Source: Candidatus Moraniibacteriota bacterium (lineage in GTDB: Bacteria; Patescibacteriota; Minisyncoccia; Moranbacterales; UBA2206). Taken from it: a stretch of 64,000 nucleotides of DNA. Below, piece by piece: positions 17,913-37,534 of the stretch. The stretch spans positions 13,129 through 77,128 of the forward strand of contig DMXN01000032.1 in NCBI GenBank assembly GCA_003482885.1, given 5' to 3'. Each line of letters begins with the position of its first letter. The first letter of the stretch is position 1. The translations under genes and the position numbers were made by a program. The notes beneath the pieces were generated by a model. The model was given only the letters and a program-made list of their open reading frames with translations. It was not told where the DNA came from and searched no databases.

Positions 17913-17954
17913 AATTCAAAATTATATCTATATTTTACTATAAAAATACAAAAA

Positions 17955-19760: not shown

Positions 19761-19930
19761 ATTGTTTGTTAAAAATTATTATTAGAAAGATAGCGTTAAA
19801 AAAACGCTAAAATGACAAAATCAAAAATGAATTATTTTTATTAAAATAGAAGATTTTTTTTCAACCACAAAAAAGAAAGTTTTACGATAGAGTAATTGTA
19901 ACAGATTACCATCGTTGTGTCAAGCTGAAT

Positions 19931-22132: not shown

Positions 22133-24724
22133 CTACGGCGCAATTGCAATATTCGTATTCACTCTTATACTTTCCGAATCCGAGTTTCCATTATCATCCG
22201 TCGCGTTGATTTTTATTTCCAAGCTGGAATTATATTTATCGCTCGGCACGGTATAGGACGCGCTGAAAGAATCGCTGCTACTGGAAGAAATATCATTGCC
22301 ATCCACACTTAATGTGGCTTTTTTAACGCCGTACGGCGCGTCGAGTTTAACGGAAATATTAAACGAAGAAGTTGTAATCGTTTGTCCGTTAGAAGGCGAA
22401 CTTATATTCGCTTGAATCTTGTACCTTGAAAAATCTTTTTCCTCGCATTCTTCGTCCGGTATGGAATCGGTAGAATAATCTTTGTCTTTCAACCATTTTT
22501 TTACGCCTTTTTCCCAATTTTCAAATTGCGAATCGCTTTTTGGATCTTTCGGCGCGTCTCCGCGAACATCATCCTTATTGATATAATATAGAATATCATG
22601 CGTAATGGAAAATTTCTTTTTCTTCACTTTGTTGTCCGGACAAGCCGAACTAGCTAAACAATATTTATCGTCCTCTCCCGGAATTTCGCAAACTTTTAAT
22701 TCTTTTTTCATTTCCAATTTTCCATCCAAAATATCTTTGCCGGTTTCCTCCGGTTCGTATTTGGGGAAATTTTCAATGTTATAATTTTTCAAAGCTTCAT
22801 CCATAAATGCCCGCCAAATCGGCGCAGCGACATAAATTCCGTCCGCTCCTTCTTTCATTATAGAATGGTCATTATTGCCCGCCCAAACGCCGGCCGCCAG
22901 CGACGGCGTATATCCCATTGTCCAACCGTCGCGCCATTCATTGGTGGTTCCGGTTTTGGCGGCCACCGGGCGATTTTCAAAACTCAAAGGATTTTTTTCG
23001 CCGAACACCGGCGCACGCAAACTATTGGTAGAAAGAATGTAGTCAATCATCGTAACATACTTTTCTTCCAACACTCGATCGCCTGCATCGGAATTATATT
23101 TTTCCAAAATATTTCCCTTACTATCCTCGATGCGCAAGATCGCTGTTTTATTATGAAGAATTCCTCCGGTGGCAAATGTGGAAAAAGCGTTGACATGATC
23201 AAGCAGCTTCACTTCTCCGCCACCCAGCACTAAAGAAAGTCCGTATCGTTCCGGTTCGGTCAAGGTTGTAATCCCCATATTTCGCGCAGTATTAATAGAA
23301 TCTTTGACGCCGGCCAAATAAAGAGTTTTCACCGCGGGAACATTTAAAGATCTTGCCAACGCGTCTTTCATTTGCATTAAGCCGGAATTTTTCCCATCAT
23401 AATTTTTTGGATTATATATTTTTCCATCATCTGTGCTGAAATTTGTGTCCGTATCCCAAATATTAGTTTCCGGCGTAAAACCTTTCGCGAACGCTGTAAG
23501 ATAAACATAAGGTTTAAAAGACGATCCCGGCTGAAGCAATGATATGGCGGCATTAACATTTGATTCAAAAACACAAGTTTTTCCCGAAGCGCAACCTTTC
23601 GGTTCGCTTTCAGCAAAATAGTCTTTACTGCCGACCATCGCTAAGATTTGTCCGGTTTTCGGATCCATCGCCACCAGCGCCACATTGGCTGCCTTATAAA
23701 TTTTGGTATTTTTTTCCGCGCCTTCCCGCACCGCTTTTTCCGCCGCTTGCTGTTTATCCCAATCGAGAGTGGTATAAACTTTCAATCCTCCCTGTTCCAC
23801 CGCCTGATCGCCGTATTTTTGCTGCAAGTAATCTTTGATATACATCACGAAATGAGGCGCCGCAAAAATATTTTTTTGCGGCTGCAATTTATCAAGAGTA
23901 CGCATATTTATCGCTTCATCAGCTTGATCTTGAGTAATATAGCCTAATTTCGCCATAGTGTTCAAAGCGAAATTTTTGCGAGCAATAAGAGCGTCCCGAT
24001 GCGAACCATAAGGAGAATAATAGGCAGTGGCTTGCGGTAAAGCGGAAATAATCGCCGCTTCGTCAAGCGTCAATTCGCGCGCCGGTTTTGCAAAAAATGT
24101 TTGCGCTGCCGCTTCAATTCCGTAAGCGTTAGATCCGTAAGGAATTTCGTTGAGGTACATCGTCAAAATTTCGTCTTTGGAAAATTTTGTTTCCACTTCC
24201 AGCGAGAGAATAACTTCTTTGATTTTTCTGATTAAAGATTTTTCGTTGGTGAGCAAAGAATTTTTCACCAGCTGCTGCGTAATAGTGGAACCGCCTTGCG
24301 CTTTGCCGAAATTTATCACATCTTTTAAAACCGCGCGGATAATCGAAGTTAATTTTATGCCGTGATGATTGTAAAAATCTTGGTCTTCAAGACTGATAGT
24401 GGCGTATTTTATGACATCCGGCATTTCAACAAAAGGAATTTGCGTTCTTTTTTCCTCGCCGTGGACTTCATAAAGCAAATGGTCACCAGAGCGATCATAA
24501 ATTTTTGTCGATTCGATAATCACCCGACTGCTGATTTTATCCGGGCTGGGCAGGTCTTTATAAAAATAGGCGAAAATTCCGGCAGAAATTAAAATGCCCA
24601 CCACTATCGCAATACCAAAAATTCTAAAAATCCATTTCCAAATCTTCCGCCATTTTAAAGCATTTTTTTTGGAAGAATAAACAGGAATTTTAGGCGAAAA
24701 AATGTTTTGCATAAGATAAGGCAC
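22133..24724 (-). CDS. Penicillin-binding protein 1A (GT51 transglycosylase plus transpeptidase) with a C-terminal Ig-like/Cys extension
   Basis: N-terminal TM. GT51 motifs ISLEDQDFYNHHGIKLTSIIRA and GGSTITQQLVKN, and transpeptidase motifs SSFKP and KTGTT. The track start at 24724 is GTG; the first ATG is at 24712. Confidence 0.85.
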   Translation of the reverse strand: MPYLMQNIFSPKIPVYSSKKNALKWRKIWKWIFRIFGIAIVVGILISAGIFAYFYKDLPSPDKISSRVIIESTKIYDRSGDHLLYEVHGEEKRTQIPFVEMPDVIKYATISLEDQDFYNHHGIKLTSIIRAVLKDVINFGKAQGGSTITQQLVKNSLLTNEKSLIRKIKEVILSLEVETKFSKDEILTMYLNEIPYGSNAYGIEAAAQTFFAKPARELTLDEAAIISALPQATAYYSPYGSHRDALIARKNFALNTMAKLGYITQDQADEAINMRTLDKLQPQKNIFAAPHFVMYIKDYLQQKYGDQAVEQGGLKVYTTLDWDKQQAAEKAVREGAEKNTKIYKAANVALVAMDPKTGQILAMVGSKDYFAESEPKGCASGKTCVFESNVNAAISLLQPGSSFKPYVYLTAFAKGFTPETNIWDTDTNFSTDDGKIYNPKNYDGKNSGLMQMKDALARSLNVPAVKTLYLAGVKDSINTARNMGITTLTEPERYGLSLVLGGGEVKLLDHVNAFSTFATGGILHNKTAILRIEDSKGNILEKYNSDAGDRVLEEKYVTMIDYILSTNSLRAPVFGEKNPLSFENRPVAAKTGTTNEWRDGWTMGYTPSLAAGVWAGNNDHSIMKEGADGIYVAAPIWRAFMDEALKNYNIENFPKYEPEETGKDILDGKLEMKKELKVCEIPGEDDKYCLASSACPDNKVKKKKFSITHDILYYINKDDVRGDAPKDPKSDSQFENWEKGVKKWLKDKDYSTDSIPDEECEEKDFSRYKIQANISSPSNGQTITTSSFNISVKLDAPYGVKKATLSVDGNDISSSSSDSFSASYTVPSDKYNSSLEIKINATDDNGNSDSESIRVNTNIAIAP

Positions 24725-24780: not shown

Positions 24781-25500
24781 TCAAATATTTTTATCTATTT
24801 CCCTAATAAGCATCTGCCGGAAATTCTTGATGATTGAATGAAAAGAAGCTGGTAAAAATCGTTTCAATTCTCCAGAAAAATTTATATCAGACTTTAAAAT
24901 AAGACTTTTTATTTCTGCTAATTTGTTTTTTTGCTCCGGCATAATCAGTCTTCCGCGCAAAAGAAAATATATATCAAAAAAATCGCGGGGCTTTTGGCGC
25001 GACAATGCTGCTTGAATTTTTTCACCAATCAATTGTTTTGCATTCAAACACACCAAAGTATAACTTGGCAAAAAATCAGAAACTATTGCATGCAATTCTC
25101 CAATAAATTTGGTTTTCTTACGATTGGAAATTTCCAATCGTAATTGAATTGAAAAATCAAAAAATTTACAGATAAAAATTGCCAAAAAACCACCAGAAGT
25201 GGCCTTGGATTCTTGCAAATCAGTTTTAATATTAAAATTTTGCATATTTTTCAAAGTCGCAATCAATAAACTCTCAAGAACTTCCACGGAAAGATTAGAA
25301 GAAAAATCAAGATCTTCGGAAAAGCGCGGAGAATCAAAAATAATTCGCAATGCCGTGCCACCTTTGAAAAAAATATTTTCGCTTTGCGACAATTGATAAA
25401 ATTGCGACAAAAAAATATGCTGGCAATATTCTTGCGCCACATTGAAATCCGAAGTTTGTAATTTTACGGACAATTTTCTAATTTGCTCTTGCGTCATCAT
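24781..25500 (-). CDS. AbiEii/AbiGii-family nucleotidyltransferase toxin (type IV TA), pair #1
   Basis: FFKGGTALRIIFDSPRFSEDLDFSS is the hallmark of the PF08843 family; it overlaps the upstream antitoxin gene by 23 nt. Confidence 0.8.
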   Translation of the reverse strand: MMTQEQIRKLSVKLQTSDFNVAQEYCQHIFLSQFYQLSQSENIFFKGGTALRIIFDSPRFSEDLDFSSNLSVEVLESLLIATLKNMQNFNIKTDLQESKATSGGFLAIFICKFFDFSIQLRLEISNRKKTKFIGELHAIVSDFLPSYTLVCLNAKQLIGEKIQAALSRQKPRDFFDIYFLLRGRLIMPEQKNKLAEIKSLILKSDINFSGELKRFLPASFHSIIKNFRQMLIREIDKNI

Positions 25501-26092
25501 AAAGTTTAGAAACCAAATTATCTATTTGAGAATCGTTAAATAATTTCTGCCATTGCCTTATTTTTTTCTTTATTAAATGAGAAACATCCAGCCTATCATT
25601 GAGTTCAGTTTTTTTTCGGGACAAATAATACAGATAGTCCATTAATGCTTTTTCTGGCTCAGCAATTAAAAATTTTTCATTGTTTTTCTCAATAAGACAA
25701 TATCCGGTAAATAATTTTTTTTTAATTTTGTTGTAGGAAAAATCCTGATCCATTGCCATGAACGAGCGAGTAGCTTTTGAAGAAATAGAGGTAATGGAAT
25801 AAGTTTTTTCCGGAATTATATTATAAAAAGACAAGGCGGATTCCAATGAGATATAAGACGGTTGATAAATTTTATTGGCAACTACGAATACGCTCGGTTT
25901 AATTGAAGCTAGGCAATAAAGTCCGTTTTTGAGTTTTAAAAAGAATTTTTTTTGAGTATATCGACCTATAAATTTGCTAACAGCAAGAGGGGATGTGCTA
26001 AAAATCCTTTGAAACTCGCGCGGACTAAAAATTGCGACATTGCTTTCCAAGAGTTTTTGTTGGACAATCAATGGATTCATTTTTTTTACCAT
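25478..26092 (-). CDS. AbiEi-family antitoxin/transcriptional regulator, pair #1 (probable ATG start at 26092 or 26080)
   Basis: …NGLYCLASIKPS…YQPSYISLESALSFYNIIPE matches the AbiEi_4 pattern. The track start at 26128 is TTG and overlaps the predicted -10 box, so a downstream ATG (MVKKMNPLIV) is preferred. Confidence 0.7.
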   Translation of the reverse strand: MVKKMNPLIVQQKLLESNVAIFSPREFQRIFSTSPLAVSKFIGRYTQKKFFLKLKNGLYCLASIKPSVFVVANKIYQPSYISLESALSFYNIIPEKTYSITSISSKATRSFMAMDQDFSYNKIKKKLFTGYCLIEKNNEKFLIAEPEKALMDYLYYLSRKKTELNDRLDVSHLIKKKIRQWQKLFNDSQIDNLVSKLYDDARAN

Positions 26093-26119
26093 ATAGTATG
26101 AAAAGTGAATTACGCAATC

Positions 26120-26148
26120 ATTATACAAATCCCTTATTTTTCTGTCAA
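26120..26148 (-). promoter_or_regulatory. Consensus sigma70-type promoter driving AbiE pair #1
   Basis: Minus strand reads TTGACA (26148..26143), a 17-nt spacer, then TATAAT (26125..26120). This is a perfect consensus hexamer pair. Confidence 0.45.
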
Positions 26149-26249: not shown

Positions 26250-27569
26250 TTATTTTTCCAAATCTTCCAAGTCAGCATCATTTATTCCAAGTTGCTCAAG
26301 TATCCAGATGTGTCTAGGATTAGTTGGATCATATTTTCCGACAGAAAATCTTTTAATTTCTTCGGGATTGCTTTTCGCAACATCCCAAATCCCAATATTT
26401 CCTTCTCGATACACAATATCTCGCGTAAGACATGCTCCGGGTGTCTGGCAAGTTGTTCCTCGAAATGTTCGCACACATCTATTCCACGCACTAATTTGAG
26501 CAAAAGATAATACCTCCGCACCTTCTTTTTTTGAAGTAATTAAAAAATAATCTTTCAGAATTTCAAAAACTTGTCGAAAATTTCTTTTTTTGCCATCCAA
26601 GCCAGCAGCTAAAGATATTGCAAGATGTCCATCAAGACCGGAAAATTCTTCCGCTCCTTTTATAGTTTGCTCTTTATAAGTGGCAATACCTTCTTCTCCT
26701 TTTAGATACCTGTCCAGTCCTAATCCTAATATTTTCAATTTTGATCTTTCTCCATTTTCTCTTCGCAAAACATGCGTTTCTATTTCATGCGCTATTAATG
26801 TTTGCAACTCCAGCGCTTTAAGTTTTCTTTTTTCAGGAATAAAGACTTTCTTTTTTTCCTGATTTACATTAATAGCTTTTATCTTTCCTTCTTTTTCAAT
26901 AATAACCTCCCAATTTTTTAATTTATGCGCTTCAAGCGCAGATTCAAAAGCCGTTTTTATTTCTTCAGCGGTATATTCTGATTTATCGTCCACTTCAACC
27001 TTAGAAAGTTTATTGCCAAAATTTATAGTGCTTTCATTATTCATGAAAGCTTCAAATAATTCTTTATTGATCCTTTTTGCGGCGCTGTTTATTTCAGAAT
27101 TAGCACTAAATATTTTTTGGTCTACTATGGTTTTGAGTTGAGAAAGCGTATATTCATAAATTTCTTTTTCCGGCTGTCCATAAATAAATTTAGAATATCT
27201 TGCCACATTGCGGTCATCGCCGGATTTAGTTTTTTTTAACATTCTTAATTCAGCCAACTTTTCATTTATTTTCCAGCGATAAACTTGACTGACTACTTTA
27301 TTTTTTTCTTCGGCTATAATTTCATTTTTAAGTTGCAAAAGAGCTGTTTCTTTTTCGTCAAAATCAAAAGTTTCCAAATCAGGATAATCCAATGATGGAT
27401 TTTCGATTTCTCCGGAAATAAACTTATTTTTTTGATTTTCTCTAAAGTTCTTTTCTCCGTTCAAATACGAATAATCAGAAAAAGACCCGCTTTTTTCAAA
27501 TCTTTCATACCATTTATCATCAAATGCCTCATGCTTTTCAGTGGAAAATGAGGGTTGTTCAAAGGACAT
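26250..27569 (-). CDS. DUF1704 (QEGLA-motif) MATCAP-like HExxH metallopeptidase
   Basis: LIAHEIETHVLR (HExxH) is followed by YLKGEEGIATYKEQ (QEGLA-like). 439 aa, at the downstream end of the ATP-grasp operon. Confidence 0.55.
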   Translation of the reverse strand: MSFEQPSFSTEKHEAFDDKWYERFEKSGSFSDYSYLNGEKNFRENQKNKFISGEIENPSLDYPDLETFDFDEKETALLQLKNEIIAEEKNKVVSQVYRWKINEKLAELRMLKKTKSGDDRNVARYSKFIYGQPEKEIYEYTLSQLKTIVDQKIFSANSEINSAAKRINKELFEAFMNNESTINFGNKLSKVEVDDKSEYTAEEIKTAFESALEAHKLKNWEVIIEKEGKIKAINVNQEKKKVFIPEKRKLKALELQTLIAHEIETHVLRRENGERSKLKILGLGLDRYLKGEEGIATYKEQTIKGAEEFSGLDGHLAISLAAGLDGKKRNFRQVFEILKDYFLITSKKEGAEVLSFAQISAWNRCVRTFRGTTCQTPGACLTRDIVYREGNIGIWDVAKSNPEEIKRFSVGKYDPTNPRHIWILEQLGINDADLEDLEK

Positions 27570-27589
27570 ATTTTTTAAAATAAAAAAAA

Positions 27590-28639
27590 TTAAAACTTGT
27601 TTTTTATTATTTTTTCGTACAACTTGATATATTTATCCGCCATAACGGAACTATCAGAGTGTTTTTCTGCAAATTCTCGACATTTTTTTCGGTCGAATTT
27701 TTCGATAGAAACAGTTGCTTTTATCAATTCATCTATATTTTCTGATAAATAAGCAACCTTTTTCCATTCTGATAATTCTTCAAAAGGACGCACTCTGCAT
27801 CCGATAACTGGAGTGCCACAAGCTAATGATTCCATTACAATCAACGGGCAAATACTTAAATTTGCTCGAATTGGAAAAAGTAATGCCTCGGCATTTTTTA
27901 AATAAAAAAAAAGTTTGTTTTGCGAAGCTTCACCCATATAAATAATTTGATCGTTTAAAAAAGGTTTTATTTTTTCATGAAAATATTTTTGTCTATCCTC
28001 GCCCACTCCGATTCTTCCAAAAATTAGCAACTTCTTTTTTGTTTCTTGAGCGATTTTTATAGCCAAATCAATTCCTTTGTTTTCAAGTAAGCGACCGGCT
28101 GTTATTAGATATGTTCCTTTAATAAAAGAAGGTTTTATTTTATCTATTTCGATTCCGTTATTAATTATTGCAACAGTTTTAAAATTTTTCTTATGCGCTT
28201 TTGATTGAGCCACTGCATAAATGCCGATTTTTTTCATTTGGTCAAATTCTTGCTTAGTTATTTTGCTATGCAAAGTAAGAACGCAAGGCTTTTTCAGGAG
28301 TGTAGCTACGGCATAAGCATATCTATAAGAATGAAGATGAATAATGTCAAATTTATCTTGATAAGAAGAGACTTTTAGGATATTTTCCAGTATAAGATTT
28401 CTTCTAAAATATTCTGTCTGATCTTTAAATCCTTTCATATTCCAAATACTTTTGGGAATAGTTGGTATATGTTTAGATTTTATTTTCCAATCAGCAGGAG
28501 CAAATAATGTCACATCAACCTCGGTTCTTTTTAGTAGCGCATTTACTAGATTTTTTACAACAATTTCCGGTCCCCCAGTTTGTCCAAACGAAGGTGCGAC
28601 CATGGCAATTTTAATTTTTTTTAGCATAATTTCAATCAT
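27590..28639 (-). CDS. Glycosyltransferase family 4 (GT-B)
   Basis: MVAPSFGQTGGPEIVVKNLVNAL at the N-terminus and CGTPVIGCRVRPFEEL (EX7E region) at the C-terminus; 349 aa. Confidence 0.7.
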   Translation of the reverse strand: MIEIMLKKIKIAMVAPSFGQTGGPEIVVKNLVNALLKRTEVDVTLFAPADWKIKSKHIPTIPKSIWNMKGFKDQTEYFRRNLILENILKVSSYQDKFDIIHLHSYRYAYAVATLLKKPCVLTLHSKITKQEFDQMKKIGIYAVAQSKAHKKNFKTVAIINNGIEIDKIKPSFIKGTYLITAGRLLENKGIDLAIKIAQETKKKLLIFGRIGVGEDRQKYFHEKIKPFLNDQIIYMGEASQNKLFFYLKNAEALLFPIRANLSICPLIVMESLACGTPVIGCRVRPFEELSEWKKVAYLSENIDELIKATVSIEKFDRKKCREFAEKHSDSSVMADKYIKLYEKIIKNKF

Positions 28640-29591
28640 TTAAACTTTTTATAATTTCAGAAAAATATCTATCTTTTATTTTTTTAGTTCCTATGATATC
28701 AAGCAAATCCAATCCTGGCGAGGTATTCATTTCAATTAAGTATGGATTTCCATTGCGATCAAACATAAAATCTAATGAGTAGTTTGATTTTGGATAAATA
28801 GACAGCTTGCAGATAATTTTTTTAACTAAATTTTTCACTGATTGAGGAATTGATTTTTGAGGAACTAAAACAACTTTTGCTCCCTGATGAAAATTTGTAA
28901 ACAAAGAATCCTTTTGAGCAATTCTTGATAAAGCATAAATTGGTTTGTGATTGATAAAAACAATTCGCAAATCAGCAAGTTCGTTCTTTGCTGAAAATCT
29001 AGGAATTCCACCCTTGCCTTCAATAAATTCTTGAATTATAACAGGAAAATTCAGAGAGTTATTTTTGATTTTGTTTTTTTCTTCGATTGTTATTCCAAAA
29101 CCTCCTGATCCATAGATAGGCTTTGCAACAATTTTTTTAGTTTTAGCTTTTTTTAGAATTGAGGGTAGCTCATTTTCTTGCATAGCCAAAAAGGATTTTG
29201 GCATAAACTCTCCTAAGCACAAATACTGAGATAGTTTATTTCCAAGCATTGTACGAAATAGAGGATTATTCAGCATGACTGTTTTTTTTGAAAGAGTTAT
29301 TTTATTATCAAACATTTTGTAATCTTGTTTACCTGATAGTTTATCTAGAATAAAGTCAGGCTTGATAAAACTATTTATTTTAGCCCATTGTTTATTTTTA
29401 AAGCCCCAAGCTTTTTTGAAAATATTTTTATCCGAGTTGTACCATTCAATATTTGCTCTGTATAGCGTTATTCCGTGTTTTATGGAATATTTACACAAAT
29501 TTTCAATAGTTTGTCTTGTGTGCGGATTATTCTCCAGAACAGTTTTTTTATTCCAGTCATCCTCGCTATATATTATAACTAAGCTTTTCAT
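28632..29591 (-). CDS. ATP-grasp ligase, YheC/YheD-like
   Basis: KIVAKPIYGSGGFGI…VIIQEFIEG…YLIEMNTSPGLD are ATP-grasp signature elements. It overlaps the GT4 gene by 8 nt. Confidence 0.65.
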   Translation of the reverse strand: MKSLVIIYSEDDWNKKTVLENNPHTRQTIENLCKYSIKHGITLYRANIEWYNSDKNIFKKAWGFKNKQWAKINSFIKPDFILDKLSGKQDYKMFDNKITLSKKTVMLNNPLFRTMLGNKLSQYLCLGEFMPKSFLAMQENELPSILKKAKTKKIVAKPIYGSGGFGITIEEKNKIKNNSLNFPVIIQEFIEGKGGIPRFSAKNELADLRIVFINHKPIYALSRIAQKDSLFTNFHQGAKVVLVPQKSIPQSVKNLVKKIICKLSIYPKSNYSLDFMFDRNGNPYLIEMNTSPGLDLLDIIGTKKIKDRYFSEIIKSLND

Positions 29592-29604
29592 GTTTGTTAA
29601 AAGG

Positions 29605-30537
29605 TTAACAGGTTATTCTAAAAATATCACACAATATTTCCTTAACAACATTTCGTTTTTTTCCGGAGGATGGGAAATAGTGAATAGAAATATCCGGATG
29701 AGCGTTTACTTCCAAGAAATATATTTTCTGCGCTGAAGCACTGAGCGAAATATCTTCACAAATAATATCCACACCGGCTAATTTCAAATTAACCAAACGA
29801 GCAGCCTTTAGCGCAAGCTGTTTAATGCTCTCGTTAACAATGTCCGTGCAATCAATGGATGTTCCTCCTTCTGCCAAACAAGAGTTATTTTGCAAGTATA
29901 CCACAACATCTTTTGGAGGAATAAAGTCGAGCGAGTATGCTTCCTTGCTAATCGCAGACAGCACCTTGTCATTGAGTATTATTTTTTTCCCCAGTCTTTC
30001 GTTTTTATATTTAATTAACTCCTCGATAGAATCTTTTCCGTTTCCCATTATTTGAGGCAAAATCATATTCAAACATCCCAGTATTCTATTTCCGTAAACA
30101 AGTATACGATATTCCTTTCCAAATATCATTTCTTGAATAACCAGCCCTCTTTTGAAATTAGGCAATATGCCGGAAAGTTCTTCCTTATTTTTAATATTTG
30201 GAAAGATATTTATGCTTCTTGCTCCGCTATTTTCTTTGACAATTGCAGGAAATTTAATTGTGCCAATAGCATTTTTCGCTTCCATAGCATTTTTAAAATA
30301 AAGACTGTTGGGAAGCGGTATGCTATTTTTTAGCCAAACATAATAGGCAAGACTTTTATTTTTGGAAAGTCTGATGCTTTCCGAATTTGGATTATCTGCT
30401 ATATGGAATGAACCATAAACGACTATCTCAGTTTTACCATTGGATATAAACACGACTTTCTTACCCAAGGGAGGTATTTCTGTTTTTAATCCAAGTCTTT
30501 TCGCCTCTCCAACGATTATTTTGAAATTTTCACTCAT
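29605..30537 (-). CDS. ATP-grasp ligase (RimK/cyanophycin-synthetase-like)
   Basis: FPAIVKENSGARSINIF…GLVIQEMIFGKEYRILV…FLEVNAHPD are ATP-grasp motifs; 310 aa. Confidence 0.6.
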   Translation of the reverse strand: MSENFKIIVGEAKRLGLKTEIPPLGKKVVFISNGKTEIVVYGSFHIADNPNSESIRLSKNKSLAYYVWLKNSIPLPNSLYFKNAMEAKNAIGTIKFPAIVKENSGARSINIFPNIKNKEELSGILPNFKRGLVIQEMIFGKEYRILVYGNRILGCLNMILPQIMGNGKDSIEELIKYKNERLGKKIILNDKVLSAISKEAYSLDFIPPKDVVVYLQNNSCLAEGGTSIDCTDIVNESIKQLALKAARLVNLKLAGVDIICEDISLSASAQKIYFLEVNAHPDISIHYFPSSGKKRNVVKEILCDIFRITC

Positions 30538-31943
30538 TTGCTTGTGTTAATTAAAAATTTACTCAAATTTCTTCTGCCAATAATCATTTGATAATTCAAA
30601 GTTGCTCGATCCGCAATATTAACTTTTGTTTCTATGTTTATAGTATCCAAAACAAATGAAATTTTTACCATTGGACGAATGGATGATCCGCTGGCAGAAA
30701 ACACAACAGCAATATCTTCAAGTTCCGGAATTGAATTTTTATATTTTTTCAAAATATTTTCTTTGATGACTTTCTCATTTTCTGGCGTAATAACATATCC
30801 TGACAAATCAATTGCGGCGAATTTTTCTACCACTTCAGAAAATCCCAATTCTTTCGCCAGTTCCGTATCAATCGAAGTTGAATATGCTCCTGTGTCAATT
30901 TTCGCTTCCACTTCGATTTCTTTCCCGTCTTTGCCGATCAGTTTTACTTTTTCCACTGTGCCGATTACTTTTTTTCCGGAAATTTCTTCCAATTCTTCCT
31001 CGATTTCTCCTCCGAAAAGATCCATCCCAACGCGAATGCCTTTTTTAATGGTTTTAATTTTAATTCCCGCCGCTTTTTTCAATCTTCTTTTTAATCCGTC
31101 AAGATTGGCGATTTGAATCGCCAATCCCGGTCGCGCGTTGAGTTCCAAAATTACCGGACCGCGTTCTTTATCAATCGCGATGTCTACGCCCAAAAAACCC
31201 AGATTGGAAATTTCTTGCGAGCGGACCGCTAAATTTAAAATATCCATCCAATAAGGAATTTTAATTCCGGAAAGTAAAAGTCTTGTACCGGGCAAATATT
31301 CAATAATTTTTTTCTTGCCTAAAACAGCCGTAGTCGTTACGCCGGAAGCCAAATCTATTCCCACGCCGATCGCGCCTTGCGCTAAATTGGCTTTGCCATT
31401 GGATTCTTTGGTCGGCAAACGCAACATCGCCATAATCGGAATTTTATTAAAAACAATCACGCGAATATCGGGAATTCCTTTATACGCGTAAGGTTTGAAA
31501 AGTTTCAAAAGTTTCAACCGCTCTTCGAAAAAAGCGACATCTGGAATACCGGACAAAGAATATGATCCGTCCAAAATGTTTATAATATGATTTTTCAAAT
31601 CGGAAATAGAAATCAACGAACCATCGGCTTTTATCCACGCGTCGGATCGTTTTTTGCTTTTTCCATAAAGCACGACAATCCCCTCGCCGCCAAAACCGCG
31701 ATTGGGCTTCAAAACAAAACTGTCCGGCAATGCTTGCCAATTAAAATTATCCAAATCGGTTTGATTTTTAATTTGCGCAATAAGCGCCGGAACGGCAATA
31801 TCATTTTTTTTAAGAATTCTTTTGCTGAACAATTTATTATCCGCCAATTTTTTGGCGCGCGCGCGATTGAAAGGGCGGATATATTCCAAGTTTCTGGAAT
31901 TCATCCCCAATATTCCCCGACTTTTTTTAATAAACTCGAACAT
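30534..31943 (-). CDS. Alpha-L-glutamate ligase-like ATP-grasp (RimK-related) fused to a C-terminal retropepsin-like (DTGA) domain
   Basis: N-terminal MNSRNLEYIRPFN… then FVLKPNRGFGGEGIVV…ILELNARPG (ATP-grasp). The C-terminal ~130 aa read GTVEKVKLIGKDGKEIEVEAKIDTGAYSTSID, i.e. an aspartyl-protease DTGA, PF05618-like. Confidence 0.65.
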   Translation of the reverse strand: MFEFIKKSRGILGMNSRNLEYIRPFNRARAKKLADNKLFSKRILKKNDIAVPALIAQIKNQTDLDNFNWQALPDSFVLKPNRGFGGEGIVVLYGKSKKRSDAWIKADGSLISISDLKNHIINILDGSYSLSGIPDVAFFEERLKLLKLFKPYAYKGIPDIRVIVFNKIPIMAMLRLPTKESNGKANLAQGAIGVGIDLASGVTTTAVLGKKKIIEYLPGTRLLLSGIKIPYWMDILNLAVRSQEISNLGFLGVDIAIDKERGPVILELNARPGLAIQIANLDGLKRRLKKAAGIKIKTIKKGIRVGMDLFGGEIEEELEEISGKKVIGTVEKVKLIGKDGKEIEVEAKIDTGAYSTSIDTELAKELGFSEVVEKFAAIDLSGYVITPENEKVIKENILKKYKNSIPELEDIAVVFSASGSSIRPMVKISFVLDTINIETKVNIADRATLNYQMIIGRRNLSKFLINTSK

Positions 31944-31956
31944 ATTGTAAAAAAAC

Positions 31957-32604
31957 TTATTTCATTATTTCCTTAAATCGAAGATACTCGCTGAAACGCA
32001 AACCCGTCCATTTGCCGAGAATAATATTAATCGGAATAGTGAAAAGAATAATCCAAGGATAAGCAATGATAAAATTAACCAGCGCGCTCCAACCGGCAAT
32101 ATAGAAACCGAGAATGGAAATGACCAAAGTTTCCGCCGCCAAAATAATAGCGACACGGTCGCCTTTCTCAATTTGCACAGCGATAAATTTTTCCACCAAC
32201 GAAATCATAATTAAAATAGGAAAAATAGATACCGAGGCCAGTCCGGTTCTTTTAACACTTCCGCCGATTGCCAACATCGCTAAAATAGAAAGCGCGACAA
32301 TCGTAAGCATAATCGCCACGCGCGGAAGGTAAAGCAAACGAAAAGATTTCAAAGCGATTCTCATCAGCATCCCGATTAAAATAATCGTAATAAAAATAGC
32401 GATGCCGTATTTGATGCCGTTGGTAGCCAAAAAAGCAAAGGTAATTAACAACGGAGTATAAATTCCAAAAGCCTTAATTCCCACCACTTGTCGCAAAAAA
32501 GCGATAAATGTCGCGATAATCGGCAACATTAAAATCAGCTTAACCGTTTCAAAAGGCACGCCTTGGTTTAATAAAAAGTTGACTACTGAGCTGGTGTTTA
32601 ACAT
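31957..32604 (-). CDS. 7TM integral membrane protein (the 7TM module usually partnered with RimK-like ATP-grasp and retropepsin-like genes)
   Basis: 215 aa with about 7 predicted hydrophobic helices, 13 nt upstream of the ATP-grasp/retropepsin gene. Confidence 0.55.
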   Translation of the reverse strand: MLNTSSVVNFLLNQGVPFETVKLILMLPIIATFIAFLRQVVGIKAFGIYTPLLITFAFLATNGIKYGIAIFITIILIGMLMRIALKSFRLLYLPRVAIMLTIVALSILAMLAIGGSVKRTGLASVSIFPILIMISLVEKFIAVQIEKGDRVAIILAAETLVISILGFYIAGWSALVNFIIAYPWIILFTIPINIILGKWTGLRFSEYLRFKEIMK

Positions 32605-32615
32605 AAATTAAAAAA

Positions 32616-33134
32616 TTATTTTAAATTATTAAATTTTCTGCTATTTATATGGCACACCGCGATCGCCAACGCATCGGCTGTGTCATCCGGTTTGGGAATG
32701 CGGTTTAAATGCAAAATATTTTTTGTCATCAACTGCATTTGTTTTTTTTCCGCTCGACCATAACCGGTCAGAGCCTGTTTGACTTGCAACGGAGTATAAC
32801 CGAAAACTTTAACATTATTCTGCCTTAAAGTCAAGAGCATCGCTCCTCTAGATTGCGCCACTTGAATAACCGTTTTTTGATTTTTGAAAAAAAACAAACT
32901 TTCAATCGCCGCTTCGGCCGGCTTATGTTTTTTGATTATTTTTTCTAAATCCTGTGCCATTTCTAAAATCCGACTATCATCGGAATTACTTTTCGCAGTG
33001 CTAATATCGCCATAGGCCGCAGAAAATATTTCCCCGTTTTTTTCTTCCACAATCGCCCAGCCGGTCGTGGCTGTTCCTGGGTCAATGCCGAGAATGCGCA
33101 AAGTAGAATTTGAATTGCCAATTATTTTTTTCAT
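32616..33134 (-). CDS. ruvC: Holliday junction resolvase RuvC
   Basis: LRILGIDPGTATTGWAIVE carries the catalytic Asp of the RNase H fold, and the C-terminus reads DTADALAIAVCH. Confidence 0.85.
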   Translation of the reverse strand: MKKIIGNSNSTLRILGIDPGTATTGWAIVEEKNGEIFSAAYGDISTAKSNSDDSRILEMAQDLEKIIKKHKPAEAAIESLFFFKNQKTVIQVAQSRGAMLLTLRQNNVKVFGYTPLQVKQALTGYGRAEKKQMQLMTKNILHLNRIPKPDDTADALAIAVCHINSRKFNNLK

Positions 33135-33190: not shown

Positions 33191-33967
33191 TTATCCCAAT
33201 CTCTGCTTGACATATTCCCGAAAACGCAAAACTCTTTCTTGATCATCGGGCTTGAGAAGAAACGGAAAGACATCTTTGGTCAATTTCGCCAAATCTAAAT
33301 CGCCGATTGAGGCTAGTAATTTTTCTTTTAATTCGTCTTTATTTTTAATACCAAATTTAAACGATAAATATTCATAATTAAAATCTCCCCTACCAAGCAA
33401 ATAACTCAGGTCATAAAAATCTCTGCCCTTCATTCTTTTTCTGCCAAAAATAGCTGCCACTTTCATCGACAAAATAATATCAATCGGCGTTATTTTAATA
33501 TTGCGAAATACATCAAACTTTTGCAATAAATAATTTTGTGGCACATACTCAAAACTATGCGGCACTGTGTCAATTTGAATTAGAATTTTTTCATTCTCCG
33601 CCACGCTCAAATTATTTGCTTGCAAAATTCTGGGAATTTTTATGTGGCAATGAAAGGCTCCTTTAAAAACATTCCTCATTTCAATTTCATAACCTTCGAG
33701 TTCCAACTCCTTTTTAATAATTTTTGACAACTCTATGAATTCATCGGCAGTCAAACCGAAATTATCGAAATCCAAGTCTTCGGAAAAACGCGCGCTGCCA
33801 TAACAAATTTTGATGGCTGTGCCACCTAAAAAAGAAAGCTTGGCGCCGATTTCCTGCTTGAAAATTATATCCAAAATTTTGTATTGCAAATATTCCCGCA
33901 AAATACCACGATCAAAACCGACTAAATTATTTGGATAGTGCTTTTTTATTTCACTGATACTGATCAT
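33191..33967 (-). CDS. AbiEii-family nucleotidyltransferase toxin, pair #2
   Basis: LSFLGGTAIKICYGSARFSEDLDFDN; 4-nt overlap with the upstream antitoxin. Confidence 0.8.
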   Translation of the reverse strand: MISISEIKKHYPNNLVGFDRGILREYLQYKILDIIFKQEIGAKLSFLGGTAIKICYGSARFSEDLDFDNFGLTADEFIELSKIIKKELELEGYEIEMRNVFKGAFHCHIKIPRILQANNLSVAENEKILIQIDTVPHSFEYVPQNYLLQKFDVFRNIKITPIDIILSMKVAAIFGRKRMKGRDFYDLSYLLGRGDFNYEYLSFKFGIKNKDELKEKLLASIGDLDLAKLTKDVFPFLLKPDDQERVLRFREYVKQRLG

Positions 33968-34578
33968 AATTTTATAACTTTATTTAATCTTTTAATTTTT
34001 TTGCTTAATGTGTTTGAATTAAATTCTTTTAAATATTTTTTCAATTTTTCTTGATTAATAAGTTCATGATAAATTTCTTCATTTAGTCTTAATTCTGAAA
34101 TATCATCTTCAGTTCGTATATCACTGCGCAAATACAAAAAATCCAAAATCGCTTTTTCCGGCTCGGCGATTTTATATGCCACATTGCCATTGTTAACAAT
34201 TTTATAACCGAAAAACAAATTTTCTTTTATTGAACGATATTGAAAATTGCCAATAGAAGTTTCTAACATTCTGGTTTTTCTGGTCGCAATGCAGGTTGTC
34301 AAAAAAACAACCTCCGGAATTAAGTTGTAAATCCTTAAAGCGGATTCCATGCTGACATAAGACGGCTCGACTAATTTGTTGCTGATAAAATAATTTTCAT
34401 TTTCATCAATCGTCTTGTCCGCGAAAACATAAAATAAATTGAAAAGTTTTTTAATATAACCTTTTTTTTGCCATTCATAAAATCGCCTAGATTCAAAATC
34501 AGGAAAAATATTCTTCACTTCCCGCATATCAATCAGTGCTCGATTTTTAAAAGTATTATAAAAATCTAGATATTTCAT
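33964..34578 (-). CDS. AbiEi-family antitoxin, pair #2
   Basis: …PSYVSMESALRIYNLIPEVVF… matches the AbiEi pattern; 204 aa. Confidence 0.7.
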   Translation of the reverse strand: MKYLDFYNTFKNRALIDMREVKNIFPDFESRRFYEWQKKGYIKKLFNLFYVFADKTIDENENYFISNKLVEPSYVSMESALRIYNLIPEVVFLTTCIATRKTRMLETSIGNFQYRSIKENLFFGYKIVNNGNVAYKIAEPEKAILDFLYLRSDIRTEDDISELRLNEEIYHELINQEKLKKYLKEFNSNTLSKKIKRLNKVIKL

Positions 34579-34820: not shown

Positions 34821-35813
34821 TTATGCCATTACATATTCTGCTCTGATTTTCTCGATTAGTTCAATCCGAGAAAAAATTTCTTCAGGTTCTTCAGAAATAT
34901 TCCCGATCGGTCGATTGACATTTCGCGCTTGGTCGACGCAGAAAACGATTTTACCGCGATGGTCGATACGCAATCCGCGACGGAATTCCGCGGGAGAACT
35001 TTCCAGCATCACCCGCAGAGTGCTTCTGTTAGCGATGGGTTTCTCAATGAAAGTTATTTTTTCTGCGCTTACTTTTTTCACATCCTCGCGAACACAATCA
35101 GAAAACGCATAAAAAATTTCTTTGTCGAGATAATCTCCTTTGACGGAGATTAACATTTCCCGAGGCGGATTAGAAACGAGATTGTTAATCGTATCCATAA
35201 AGACACCAACTTTTATATCTCTAGGATACAGCGGGAACATGTGAATATTTCTGACTCCCAAGTCCCGCAAAAATTTCGCAAACTCGTTCAATTGCGGTGC
35301 AGATTTTTCGTCAACCTTGTGCAAAACAAAAACGTCTGCGCCAGTGTCGAGAAGATATTTAATGCCGGAAATTGTTTTGGCAAAATTGCCCTTTCCCCTT
35401 GTCGCTTCGTGAACTTCTTCAAGCCCATCGAGCGACACATCGACGAAAGAAACAAGGCCTGCCAATTTTTTGGCATACTCTTTTGTCATGAGCGTGCCGT
35501 TTGTGATAACACCCACTTTTGGAATGCCCATCGCGCGTACTCCGCCAAGCACGGCAAAGGTTTTCTTGGGAGACAAAAAAGGTTCTCTCCCAACGATGGC
35601 GACACTCTCCAACCCGGAAAGCTTATGGACTTTCTGGATAAAGTTCAGCGTCGCATCCGTATCTATTTCCACAAATGACTCACCATTGATACCAGCAAGA
35701 TAACAATACGGGCAACGCAAGTTGCACATATTGTTGACGAACAGCGAGACACTTTTTATTTTGGGTGGTTTGGCTAACCGTCCCGCGCTTCCTTCAAATC
35801 CAACTGCGCACAT
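34821..35813 (-). CDS. Radical SAM enzyme (CxxxCxxC; no SPASM recognisable) with an N-terminal extension homologous to the upstream peptide
   Basis: MCAVGFEGSAGRLAKPPKIKSVSLFVNNMCNLRCPYCY is the 4Fe-4S cluster motif. REPFLSP, ITNGTL and VSLDG are rSAM core elements; 330 aa. Confidence 0.8.
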   Translation of the reverse strand: MCAVGFEGSAGRLAKPPKIKSVSLFVNNMCNLRCPYCYLAGINGESFVEIDTDATLNFIQKVHKLSGLESVAIVGREPFLSPKKTFAVLGGVRAMGIPKVGVITNGTLMTKEYAKKLAGLVSFVDVSLDGLEEVHEATRGKGNFAKTISGIKYLLDTGADVFVLHKVDEKSAPQLNEFAKFLRDLGVRNIHMFPLYPRDIKVGVFMDTINNLVSNPPREMLISVKGDYLDKEIFYAFSDCVREDVKKVSAEKITFIEKPIANRSTLRVMLESSPAEFRRGLRIDHRGKIVFCVDQARNVNRPIGNISEEPEEIFSRIELIEKIRAEYVMA

Positions 35814-35935
35814 TATTCACTCACCTCCTCTTCATTGTCGCAAGAAGTTGATTCTTCTGTTGCCGGCTTTGTCTCTATTTCTTCCTTGTCGTCCTCTTGT
35901 AATTGCCCTGCACTTCCTTCAAATCCTAACGCCAT
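35813..35935 (-). CDS. 40-aa highly acidic peptide (candidate RiPP-type precursor), translationally coupled to the radical SAM gene
   Basis: MALGFEGSAGQLQEDDKEEIETKPATEESTSCDNEEEVSE. GGAGGT lies 6 nt upstream of the ATG, and its stop TAA overlaps the rSAM ATG (TAATG). Its first 10 residues are repeated at the rSAM N-terminus. It is not in the ORF track because it is below the length cutoff. Confidence 0.5.
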   Translation of the reverse strand: MALGFEGSAGQLQEDDKEEIETKPATEESTSCDNEEEVSE

Positions 35936-36126
35936 GAGAGTACCTCCAAATATTAAGTTTTATAAGAACTGAAAACCGCTCCTTATTTAAACCATACAAG
36001 TAATTTATTTATTTTGTTTTCAAGTCAATACATTTTTAAATTATATTAGCAAATAACATCCTTTACGAAGCCAAAATTTGAACAAAATAATTTGACTTTT
36101 TCGACAACATAAAGTACCCTTGAATT

Positions 36127-36918
36127 ATGAATTATTCAAACAAACTTAAAAAAATAGGATTTTCCGAAGCGGAAGCCGCGGTTTATTTGGCTTGTTTGGA
36201 ATTGGGCGGAGCTAAAGCCTCTGAAATTGCCAAAAAAACAAATTTATTGCGCACTTCAATTTATACTGTCAGCAAAGCGCTTCTTGAAAAAAGTTATCTT
36301 CAAAAAAGCAAGCATGGCAAAATAGACAAATTTATTGCGCGCGATCCCAAAATAATTTTGGAAGAAACCCGAGAAAATCTCGATTCGTTCGCCGCGATTG
36401 TTCCCAATCTCGGAAATCTCATGAATCTTGCCGCCAAATGTCCAAAAGTAGAATTTTCCGAAACCAAAGAAGGAATTTTGAATATTTACAAACAAATAAT
36501 AAAGGCTGACAGAAAATATCCAATCTGTCTTATCGAGTCAGGCAAAGCAGTTGAAAAAATTTATGAGATTTCCGGATGGGACTTTGTTTATGAATGGCAA
36601 AAAAAGTTTTCAGAAAAAGATATCGCGGTTAAAGGAATTATCACAGATGACCTGCTTCCTGTTTTTGAAAAAATTCCAGAGAAGATAAAGAATTTGCTCA
36701 GCAGAAGAACTCAAATTGCACGAGTTATTAAAAAAGAGGAATTTCCTTTTTCAATCAATCTCTATCTTATGTATCCCAACCTTGTCTATTTTATAGTTCC
36801 TGATAGCTTGTTTGTCCTCAGTATTGAAAACAAGGATATTTATATTTCTCTAAAATCTATGTTTGAAGGATTATATGAAAAAACAAAATCAGTGGATGCA
36901 AAAGAAATTTTTGGATAA
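36127..36918 (+). CDS. TrmB-family transcriptional regulator
   Basis: LKKIGFSEAEAAVYLACLELGGAKASEIAKKTNLLRTSIYTVSKAL is a TrmB-type wHTH. It is divergent from the peptide/rSAM operon. Confidence 0.7.
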   Translation: MNYSNKLKKIGFSEAEAAVYLACLELGGAKASEIAKKTNLLRTSIYTVSKALLEKSYLQKSKHGKIDKFIARDPKIILEETRENLDSFAAIVPNLGNLMNLAAKCPKVEFSETKEGILNIYKQIIKADRKYPICLIESGKAVEKIYEISGWDFVYEWQKKFSEKDIAVKGIITDDLLPVFEKIPEKIKNLLSRRTQIARVIKKEEFPFSINLYLMYPNLVYFIVPDSLFVLSIENKDIYISLKSMFEGLYEKTKSVDAKEIFG

Positions 36919-36919
36919 G

Positions 36920-37534
36920 TTATTTTTTATGCCCCCGTCCCTCATGCCATGGAAACATATCTCGTCGAAGTTTTGCCATTCGGCCGTCGGGATGATAGAA
37001 AACCAAACCTTCTGCCAGAACTTCGGGAAATTTGAATTTTTGATTGAAAATACTTGGTAAAGTTTTGAACCATTCGGAAATGGAATAGAAATCTTTTGGA
37101 TATTTATTTTGCACCCAAGTGTGCCAATGACAGCGTTCGCTCAAAACTTCAAAAGGGATAAAAATATTGCCAGTGATTTGGTGCGGATTGCCATTGAAAA
37201 GTTCGCCGATGAGCTCTCCATAATGATCGCCATCTTCCCAATTGGCGCACCAACCGCGCTTTATCGCCTGCGCGATACCTTCAAAACAAGCTGCTTCCCA
37301 ATTGGTTTTATGAATATTAAAAATATTTTTTTCATTTGTCCGATTAAAAATCTCAGAAATATTTCCATTTTTAATTCGAATGCAAATATTCGTTCCGTCA
37401 ATTTTATCTGATGCTCGCACTCCCGACTCAAAAACCCAAGAATAATCAGGATCAATTTCCGGTGTCACGATATATCGTCCGTCAATTTCTTTTCGCACAA
37501 ATGGCGAATGAAGTTTTGGAAAATCTTTTAGCAT
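36920..37534 (-). CDS. Minimal ATP-dependent RNA/DNA ligase-family nucleotidyltransferase (KxDG)
   Basis: SDKIDGTNICI is motif I (KxDG), AEGLVFYHPDG is motif IV (EG-V), and MAKLRR is a motif V-like region; 204 aa. Confidence 0.5.
   Translation of the reverse strand: MLKDFPKLHSPFVRKEIDGRYIVTPEIDPDYSWVFESGVRASDKIDGTNICIRIKNGNISEIFNRTNEKNIFNIHKTNWEAACFEGIAQAIKRGWCANWEDGDHYGELIGELFNGNPHQITGNIFIPFEVLSERCHWHTWVQNKYPKDFYSISEWFKTLPSIFNQKFKFPEVLAEGLVFYHPDGRMAKLRRDMFPWHEGRGHKK

Follow-up and report, generated by a model that had tools for sequence, protein, structure and literature searches.

A 7TM and ATP-grasp/retropepsin core with a variable ligase island between ruvC and ponA in Candidatus Moraniibacteriota

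The window analysed here is a stretch of 64,000 nucleotides (contig DMXN01000032.1, positions 13,129 to 77,128; assembly GCA_003482885.1) from a Candidatus Moraniibacteriota bacterium of the candidate phyla radiation (CPR). On its minus strand, ruvC is followed by six genes that encode a seven-transmembrane (7TM) protein, an ATP-grasp ligase fused to a retropepsin-like domain (AG1f), two further ATP-grasp ligases (AG2 and AG3), a GT4-family glycosyltransferase and a MATCAP-like (DUF1704) metallopeptidase. Relatives were found in 345 species when one genome per species was scanned, and in the best 80 loci, which were examined, the 7TM and AG1f genes form a constant core followed by an island of variable content. 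The reading that we favour, tentatively, is that the locus is a CPR version of a system of the RloABC or RimK-RimB kind, which would be membrane-associated and independent of the ribosome and would build, trim and decorate an acidic peptide or poly-amino-acid. The cassette type is already known from Pfam/TIGRFAM families and from RloABC, as is the presence of DUF1704 peptidases beside such ligases; these cassettes were reportedly first described by Iyer et al. in 2009. By the searchable literature, three points are new: a 7TM protein without transglutaminase domain together with a ligase-retropepsin fusion between ruvC and ponA in every sampled Moranbacteria relative, a fast-evolving combinatorial ligase/sugar island attached to this core, and the large number of ligase-MATCAP and ligase-YdjC fusions among CPR bacteria. 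Searches of the literature on DUF1704/QEGLA, and on Moranbacteria together with ATP-grasp, returned nothing relevant.

The core and its relation to RloABC

An earlier note, made from the sequence alone, had described seven tightly spaced minus-strand open reading frames running on from ruvC. All were found again, at the following positions:

32616-33134, minus strand, ruvC (PF02075, 8e-47), upstream neighbour of the 7TM gene
31957-32604, minus strand, 7TM membrane protein of 215 aa (PF14402), core component
30534-31943, minus strand, AG1f, ATP-grasp/retropepsin fusion of 469 aa, core component
31074-31895, minus strand, ATP-grasp ligase domain of AG1f (about residues 17-290), with the Mg/ATP motif E267-x-N269
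30984-31007, minus strand, acidic motif EIEEELEE of the AG1f linker (residues 313-320)
30546-30971, minus strand, retropepsin domain of AG1f (about residues 325-466), with D350-T-G-A, K348, R423 and R446
29605-30537, minus strand, AG2, stand-alone ATP-grasp of 310 aa (island subfamily ag1)
28632-29591, minus strand, AG3, RimK/GshB/YheCD-like ATP-grasp of 319 aa (island subfamily ag0)
27590-28639, minus strand, GT4-family (GT-B) glycosyltransferase of 349 aa, accessory island gene
26250-27569, minus strand, MATCAP/DUF1704 metallopeptidase of 439 aa, accessory island gene

From ruvC to the peptidase gene the successive gaps are 11, 13, -4, 13, -8 and 20 nt, GT4 overlapping AG3 by 8 nt. ruvC is probably co-transcribed with the 7TM gene, and no functional link is implied by this. 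Every domain assignment of the earlier note was borne out by profile searches (Pfam, NCBIfam/TIGRFAM). The catalytic motifs are intact: AG1f has DTGA, each of the three ligases has E-x-N, and the peptidase has HEIETH...EEGIA. Membrane helices were found in the 7TM protein alone; the other operon proteins have neither transmembrane segments nor signal peptides. Independent assemblies from several samples gave the same locus in 21 contigs, which rules out an assembly artefact or chimera. A metagenomic locus from a different species (L089) carries all seven window genes in the same order with 72–85% protein identity (85% for AG1f, 72% for the MATCAP-like peptidase), and with this second occurrence the arrangement is not due to chance either.

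AG1f was recognised by PF14397 (E 2e-68, 231 bits, cutoff 31.4) and by TIGR02291 (E 2e-88, 296 bits, cutoff 314), the model of 'alpha-L-glutamate ligase-like' proteins. Its C-terminus matched the retropepsin-like family PF05618 (E 2.5e-7, 31.1 bits, cutoff 27). The RimK model TIGR00768 gave 56 bits against a cutoff of 143.4, and the NCBIfam models RloA1-3 gave the retropepsin domain 26–36 bits against cutoffs of 210–280. More than 7800 homologues of AG1f were found; the best 120 are 68–90% identical, and all of these come from Moranbacteria-type CPR genomes. The AlphaFold2 model shows two confident domains and a disordered linker (residues 274-324, predicted local distance difference test score <50), and the nearest solved folds are those of ArgX/LysX, RimK, PsnB and Ddl, with about 270–290 columns aligned. 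AG1f has no signal peptide and no transmembrane segment and is therefore cytoplasmic.

The DTGA motif of AG1f occupies residues 350-353. Its retropepsin domain aligns to the RloA crystal structures 9g59 and 9g58, with K-x-DTGA, 'RP' and 'DR' conserved, and R423 and R446 lie 23 residues apart, which is the spacing of R114 and R137 in RloA. Judging from these motifs and the arginine spacing, K348, D350, R423 and R446 would correspond to the poly-Glu-binding residues K46, D48, R114 and R137 of RloA. In 52 homologues, K348, DTGA, R423 and R446 are invariant or nearly so. In the linker, F310, G311, G312, E313, E319, I321, S322 and G323 are invariant and E315-E317 nearly invariant (52 sequences). 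The motif EIEEELEE is a possible pseudo-substrate or self-cleavage site of the adjacent, Glu-specific protease domain. Glu-rich sequences are cut by RloA and by RimB (PMC12239564).

The 7TM protein matches PF14402 (7TM_transglut) with an E-value of 4e-31 over profile positions 54-247 of 248, and the NCBIfam model RloB matches in the C-terminus only (85 bits, cutoff 900). On these matches, it is assigned as the C-terminal 7TM module of RloB-type proteins, free of a transglutaminase or other extracellular domain. Its AlphaFold2 model (predicted template modelling score 0.73) has seven transmembrane helices, and a comparison of this model with PDB folds gave no significant match (best E = 3).

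Lormand et al. have described RloABC, an operon of Pseudomonas aeruginosa, in 2025 (PMC12239564). The secreted RloA retropepsins cut stretches of at least eight Glu residues, and in mutants without the RloA proteases the defects are suppressed once rloB, which encodes the 7TM-transglutaminase protein, or rloC, which encodes the ATP-grasp, is lost as well. The rlo mutants show altered cell shape and sensitivity to ampicillin and hypo-osmotic stress, and in Pseudomonas tolerance of antibiotics, biofilm formation and cell shape are all influenced by RloABC (PMC12239564). Envelope phenotypes have also been reported for proteobacterial homologues (PMC12239564; PMC12096838). Proteobacteria account for 96% of RloB sequence matches (PMC12239564). 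The 7TM, RimK-related ATP-grasp and retropepsin trio, which the earlier note had named as a recurrent cassette, is indeed this system, now named RloABC (PMC12239564).

Like RloABC, the window has as neighbours a 7TM protein of PF14402, an ATP-grasp that belongs to PF14397 and comes close to TIGR02291, and a retropepsin of PF05618 in which DTGA and the K/R/R residues are kept. The functions are encoded adjacently in both, the 7TM and AG1f genes being 13 nt apart in the window and adjacent in 80/80 loci. However, RloB has an inactive transglutaminase domain that the Moranbacteria 7TM protein does not have, and RloA is a separate, secreted protein with a signal peptide, whereas the retropepsin is here cytoplasmic and fused to the ligase. 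The cutoffs of the RloA and RloB models are missed widely and that of TIGR02291 narrowly. In addition, the Moranbacteria core is followed by a variable ligase/sugar island, and the host belongs to CPR, outside the Proteobacteria. A second comparison is offered by RimK-RimB, which acts in the poly-glutamylation of ribosomal protein S6 (PMC11957791, PMC4741518). It likewise combines a cytoplasmic ATP-grasp ligase with a cytoplasmic retropepsin-like protease, and AG3 and several island ligases are RimK-like. Unlike in RimK-RimB, ligase and protease are here one polypeptide with an obligate 7TM partner, and nothing points to RpsF as target.

A variable island downstream of the core

The order yebC-ruvC-7TM-AG1f-[island]-ponA is found on one strand in 80/80 loci, as far as the contigs reach. 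ponA follows the island in 73 loci, the other contigs ending first, and dnaN-dnaA lie a few genes beyond wherever the contig is long enough. In the window the island is bounded downstream by:

22133-24724, minus strand, ponA (class A penicillin-binding protein, with Transgly and Transpeptidase domains)

The 7TM protein is kept in 80/80 loci. Compared with the window proteins, it and AG1f reach a median identity of 67%, RuvC 64%, PBP1A 62% and YebC 56%. The loci were picked by similarity to AG1f, and within them the core does not fall behind RuvC and PBP1A in conservation.

The stretch between AG1f and ponA measures 987–7422 bp in the 73 complete loci. ATP-grasp ligases dominate it, with 1–4 per locus and at least 16 subfamilies at 38% identity, and 72 complete loci show 55 different compositions drawn from 35 families. 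Where the core ligases are 80–90% identical, the island families are shared on average to 27% (Jaccard 0.27). The accessory families include GT4, GT2, GT8, a YdjC-type deacetylase, GNAT, MATCAP and DUF3541; others are a biotin-carboxylase-like ATP-grasp and two families without annotation. The window island consists of ag1, ag0, GT4 and MATCAP. This full combination occurs in none of the 80 GTDB loci, and its modules recur in them. The two extra ligases of the window represent two of at least 16 subfamilies that can replace one another. The seven-gene operon of the earlier note therefore stands as a set of genes in the given order, with ruvC as the seventh and with the same order in L089 alone, and not as a fixed conserved unit, since the 7TM/AG1f core alone is constant (80/80) and GT4 (about 12/80) and MATCAP (10/80, 11 with the window) are accessory. 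The same note had given, as grounds for its refutation, ligases that prove to be unrelated primary-metabolism enzymes and a gene order not kept by relatives. Models of Ddl, carbamoyl-phosphate synthase, biotin carboxylase and PurD/K gave weak partial matches far below their cutoffs for the three window ligases. The best matches of all three are peptide-ligase families, no curated primary-metabolism cutoff was reached, and the core order holds throughout the 80 loci.

AG2, whose subfamily ag1 occurs in 18 loci, belongs to PF08443 and matches the cyanophycin-synthetase model TIGR02068 (1e-50) over CphA residues 187-471 and the GshAB ligase domain profile (1e-41). Its PDB matches are CphA1 (7lgm/7lg5, 2e-26) and GshAB (3ln7, 8e-24), and its ATP-grasp motif is E276-x-N. 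Of the three CphA1 domains (N, G and M), it is the G domain to which AG2 is homologous. Mur ligases resembling the M domain occur in related islands, and the theme of non-ribosomal poly-amino-acid synthesis is common to both systems. However, AG2 is not a cyanophycin synthetase, because it consists of the G domain alone, without N or M domain, and scores 172 bits against the TIGR02068 cutoff of 850. No cyanophycinase gene was present among the annotated island families. AG3 matches several ATP-grasp Pfam families at about 1e-12 and shows weak similarity to the RimK, GshB and YheCD families, the nearest solved structure being the Pseudomonas RimK 7qys (1e-4). The RimK model TIGR00768 (cutoff 143.4) gave 63 bits for AG2 and 38 bits for AG3; subfamily ag4, from islands of other genomes, passes it with 147 bits. 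AG3 orthologues (at least 47% identity) lie immediately upstream of a GT4 orthologue in 9 loci. A cluster for ribosomally synthesised and post-translationally modified peptides, such as graspetides, was also considered and rejected, since gaps of at most 20 nt leave no room for a precursor open reading frame between the genes; graspetide maturase models matched none of the window ligases at E <= 0.01.

Some related islands encode a RimK-family ligase of about 590 aa fused to DUF3541 (L051:12358-14130 and L043:11417-13195; also L065, L066 and L074). The fusion was shown by Pfam in two scanned island proteins of these five loci, and DUF3541 is a separate island gene in L049 and L077. This pattern points to a role of the uncharacterised DUF3541 in the same pathway. 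In locus L036, an 853-aa island protein joins ATP-grasp, Mur_ligase_M and Mur_ligase_C, which is the complete domain order of CphA; it was not scored against the CphA model.

Peptidoglycan bridges differ between species, and in enterococci an ATP-grasp D-aspartate ligase adds the cross-bridge amino acid. It is conceivable, although unlikely, that the locus tailors peptidoglycan, with ligases that would add side-chain or cross-bridge residues or modify stem peptides, peptidases that would trim them, and island variety that would represent chemotypes. The island always lies directly upstream of ponA on the same strand, and ponA is also nearby in a locus of another CPR lineage (L091). Mur-ligase-like genes occur in the islands, a Mur ligase follows a ligase fusion in L092, and several island ATP-grasps are weakly Ddl-like. 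The shape, ampicillin and hypo-osmotic phenotypes of rlo mutants would also agree with such a role (PMC12239564). However, the Mur-like island proteins match the CphA M domain (8e-54) far better than MurE (9e-21), and the protease residues are tuned to long poly-Glu, which is not a peptidoglycan feature. The GT, YdjC and GNAT genes and the 7TM partner would be left unexplained, and synteny near the replication origin may be historical and without functional meaning.

The glycosyltransferase matches PF00534 (2e-14, 54 bits) and PF13439 (40 bits), both above cutoff, and PF13692 as well. Its N-terminal Glyco_transf_4 and C-terminal Glycos_transf_1 domains are in the order of a GT-B enzyme, and in the profile search no specific equivalog (BshA, MshA or others) was approached. 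The peptidase matches PF08014 (E 5e-27, 95.4 bits, cutoff 27) and reaches 81 bits with the QEGLA model TIGR02421, whose cutoff is 339. The earlier note had given its motif as HExxH/QEGLA. The actual motif is HEIETH, that is HExxxH (residues 261-266, nt 26772-26789), with EEGIA (residues 292-296), and these align to HEIGTH and EEGLA of human MATCAP (7z5g). Stand-alone homologues of this peptidase also occur elsewhere in genomes, among them a 377-aa protein (L084:8001-9134) beside CBASS-like SAVED/SMODS, LexA-like and ImuB-like genes. The island family U620, of about 620 aa, with a HEFTH (HExxH) motif (L012:13288-15129; also L021, L037, L039 and L062) never co-occurs with MATCAP in the 80 loci and may be an alternative metallopeptidase. 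It gave no Pfam or NCBIfam match, and its interpretation as a divergent MATCAP was rejected, BLASTP showing no similarity.

MATCAP is enriched in loci with GT4, YdjC or GNAT (8/24 vs 2/56, p = 7e-4). This co-variation, and the co-occurrence of GT4, YdjC and GNAT, have been weighed as signs of a small soluble metabolite, a glutathione-, N-acetylglutaminylglutamine amide- or bacillithiol-like osmolyte or redox buffer, in which GT4, deacetylase, ligase and GNAT would mirror mycothiol/bacillithiol logic. We consider such a product quite improbable. AG2-type ligases do match GshAB and N-acetylglutaminylglutamine synthetase models, and AG3 matches glutathione synthetase models, but all these matches are far below the curated cutoffs. 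Rlo is linked to osmotic-stress tolerance (PMC12239564), which would suit an osmolyte. Nevertheless, 72 species would have no need of 55 gene sets to make one universal metabolite, an endoprotease tuned to at least eight Glu has no role on a di- or tripeptide, and the 7TM partner would be unexplained.

Gene fusions and the proposed pathway

A search with AG1f against 1.84 billion cluster representatives returned 1932 matches, and Pfam scans were made on representatives from the best 150. The ligase-retropepsin architecture persists down to 35% identity. About 45 of the 150 have, judged by length, a ligase followed by a retropepsin remnant, where present, and MATCAP, and PF08014 was found in 9/9 of those sampled. 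Other proteins join ligase, retropepsin and MATCAP (916 aa) or ligase, retropepsin and YdjC (688 aa), and in a further type 7TM is joined to the ligase, a transglutaminase domain being present in some of these proteins and missing in others. Peregrinibacteria, Gracilibacteria and other Patescibacteria supplied the named examples of fusions. L091 reads yebC-ruvC-[PKD-7TM]-[ligase-MATCAP], and ponA lies there at a distance of about 3 kb, so the ruvC/ponA synteny spans CPR lineages, and in L092 the Mur ligase comes right after a ligase-MATCAP fusion. The 7TM partner in these two loci is about 515 aa long with N-terminal PKD domains (L091:3436-4980, L092:5434-6981). These PKD domains stand in place of the inactive transglutaminase of proteobacterial RloB, and the Moranbacteria 7TM protein has no extracellular domain. 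From this difference between lineages (none, PKD or transglutaminase) it is argued that the system faces the cell surface.

Fusions of the ligase with MATCAP, YdjC or 7TM show that the parts belong to one pathway, and they make MATCAP and YdjC true components of this class of systems. The idea of a ligase/eraser system, put forward in the earlier note, is strongly supported by the fusions to MATCAP, to retropepsin and MATCAP, and to retropepsin and YdjC. They show that one and the same substrate is worked on by the ligase, by the Glu-specific endoprotease, by a carboxypeptidase of the MATCAP type and by a sugar deacetylase.

In eukaryotes, the MATCAP family removes the C-terminal residue from an acidic tail. 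The tubulin tyrosination cycle, with tubulin-tyrosine ligase (TTL) and MATCAP, is comparable to the present system in pairing an ATP-grasp ligase with a PF08014 peptidase that has HExxxH...EEG(L/I)A, the two being fused in CPR. The differences are that the bacteria have no tubulin, that their ligase belongs to the RloC/RimK type instead of being a TTL orthologue, and that the peptidase is optional in Moranbacteria. Such parallels raise the alternative of reversible C-terminal protein tagging, which we regard as rather unlikely. AG1 and the extra ligases would write the tag, as RimK does on RpsF and TTL or TTL-like enzymes on tubulin, and the retropepsin and MATCAP would erase it. This would agree with the RimK/RimB homology, with a fold nearest to ArgX/LysX and RimK, which modify protein C-termini, with the trimming of acidic tails by eukaryotic MATCAP, and with the ligase-MATCAP and ligase-retropepsin fusions. 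It accounts poorly for the obligate 7TM partner with its extracellular domains in other lineages and for sugar-handling genes that lie within the island and are fused to the ligase. In addition, the extreme turnover of ligases between close relatives fits badly with one conserved target, and the operon, with gaps of at most 20 nt, contains no candidate substrate gene.

The sequences themselves establish the gene content, the intact catalytic motifs, the kept poly-Glu-binding residues, the constant core with its variable island, and the fusions that join ligase, retropepsin, MATCAP, YdjC and 7TM. For the peptide or poly-amino-acid that we favour, we infer the substrate, the acidic nature of the product, its export and the order of steps as follows. 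An acyl-phosphate intermediate is used by RimK, the CphA G domain and GshB when they add an amino acid to a carboxylate. By the same RimK-type chemistry AG1 would add acidic residues, most likely glutamate, onto a carboxylate. The fused retropepsin would cut long acidic stretches and so limit chain length or recycle chains, as RimB does for RimK, and the 7TM partner would hold the enzyme at the membrane and pass the product outward or couple it to the envelope. The island ligases (CphA-G-like and RimK/GshB-like here, CphA-M-like elsewhere) would add other residues or branches. GT4 would attach a sugar, and in other islands GT, YdjC and GNAT proteins would attach and modify sugars. The MATCAP-like carboxypeptidase would strip residues from the growing C-terminal end. 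In PgsBCA-type systems, an ATP-dependent amide ligase and small membrane proteins make an acidic polymer, sometimes with sugars. The likeness of PgsBCA/teichuronopeptide-type polymers to the present locus is one of concept only, an amide ligase and small membrane proteins leading to an acidic envelope polymer, and there is no sequence relationship to PgsB, PgsC or PgsA.

Several points weigh against this pathway. AG1f scores just under the TIGR02291 cutoff and far under that of RimK, so that a specificity for glutamate would follow by analogy only. The protease domain is cytoplasmic, and export is thus not demanded by logic. The 7TM fold resembles no known transporter, and the protein, as modelled, could be a sensor or an anchor. 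Stand-alone MATCAP homologues also sit away from the locus, and the constant adjacency of ponA and the Mur-ligase-like genes fit a peptidoglycan role equally well. Moreover, we know of no product or acceptor that has been identified for any member of this class of systems, RloABC included.

The CPR versions offer new handles on the question of the RloABC product, and the make-up of the variable island suggests a glycosylated peptide that grows one residue at a time. A locus conserved to such a degree and equipped with two to five dedicated ligases is a large commitment for a very small CPR genome, and it is a candidate determinant of the envelope or host interface. It is also a bacterial case of physical coupling between an ATP-grasp amino-acid ligase and a MATCAP peptidase, a coupling that bears on the origin of the tubulin tyrosination cycle. 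A bolder proposal, to which we give a small but real chance, is that of a near-universal CPR assembly line, in which a 7TM and ligase-protease core would be reprogrammed by a fast-evolving cassette so as to make a species-specific acidic surface (glyco)polymer, a 'peptide O-antigen', with the ligase-MATCAP fusions as a prokaryotic prototype of the TTL/MATCAP cycle. If true, the 'peptide O-antigen' could mediate envelope integrity or host attachment in CPR episymbionts.

Flanking modules and the wider window

In the window, the block from ruvC to the peptidase gene is flanked by two AbiE modules:

24781-26128, minus strand, AbiEi/AbiEii module between MATCAP and ponA (PADLOC AbiEi 3e-42, AbiEii 7e-26)
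33191-34578, minus strand, second AbiEi/AbiEii module, between yebC and ruvC (PADLOC AbiEi 8e-64, AbiEii 6e-91)

The two pairs are 33–39% identical to each other. L089 has no AbiE, radical-SAM or TrmB genes around the operon, and in the relatives AbiE pairs occur at other positions or are absent, being missing from most of the 80 loci. The modules are therefore unrelated insertions, as the full window order exists in L089 without them. A perfect sigma-70-type promoter, TTGACA-17-TATAAT (26148-26120, minus strand), lies directly upstream of the AbiEi gene of the first module and fits an autonomous, recently inserted toxin-antitoxin module. It was the sole clear signal of the promoter/terminator scan, which found no convincing promoter or terminator of the operon; promoter-like (58 vs 46.5) and terminator-like (19 vs 10.7) counts were not far above those of shuffled controls.

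The earlier note had considered a conflict role on account of these neighbours. An anti-phage or inter-microbial conflict system is, however, largely refuted and very improbable. Apart from the two modules themselves, the high variability of the island resembles that of defence islands, and one stand-alone MATCAP homologue is near CBASS-like genes. However, AbiE is absent from L089 with its identical operon and from most relatives, the pairs are divergent, and a promoter of its own serves one of them. In PADLOC, the six operon proteins were without a match, the flanking AbiEi/AbiEii alone giving one. Every sampled relative has the core, and its presence throughout, with a conservation no lower than that of RuvC and PBP1A, is typical of housekeeping and not of defence.

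Between yebC and the second AbiE module lie a radical-SAM gene (34821-35813, minus strand), a TrmB-like regulator (36127-36918, plus strand) and an open reading frame of 204 aa (36920-37534, minus strand), in which 'KIDGTN' resembles the KxDG nucleotidyl-transferase motif of ligases. The region 34821-37534 looks like a second insertion block, none of its three genes having been called between yebC and ruvC in L089. Downstream of ponA, at about 16300-22036, a 701-aa beta-propeller protein (PF09826), RNase J and an N6/N4 methyltransferase with a HinfI-like restriction pair were placed by mapping annotation from the identical locus L086 onto the window. In L001, L003 and L089, the region downstream of ponA runs on toward dnaN-dnaA instead. 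The island has a G+C of 0.316–0.318 against 0.34–0.41 in the flanks, and the lowest G+C of the window (0.305, at 16001-18000) coincides with the restriction-modification genes. The segment 12001-14000 has the sole positive GC skew (+0.09), with an AT skew of +0.17, the rest of the window being uniformly negative, and it may be a plus-strand gene block or a local inversion.

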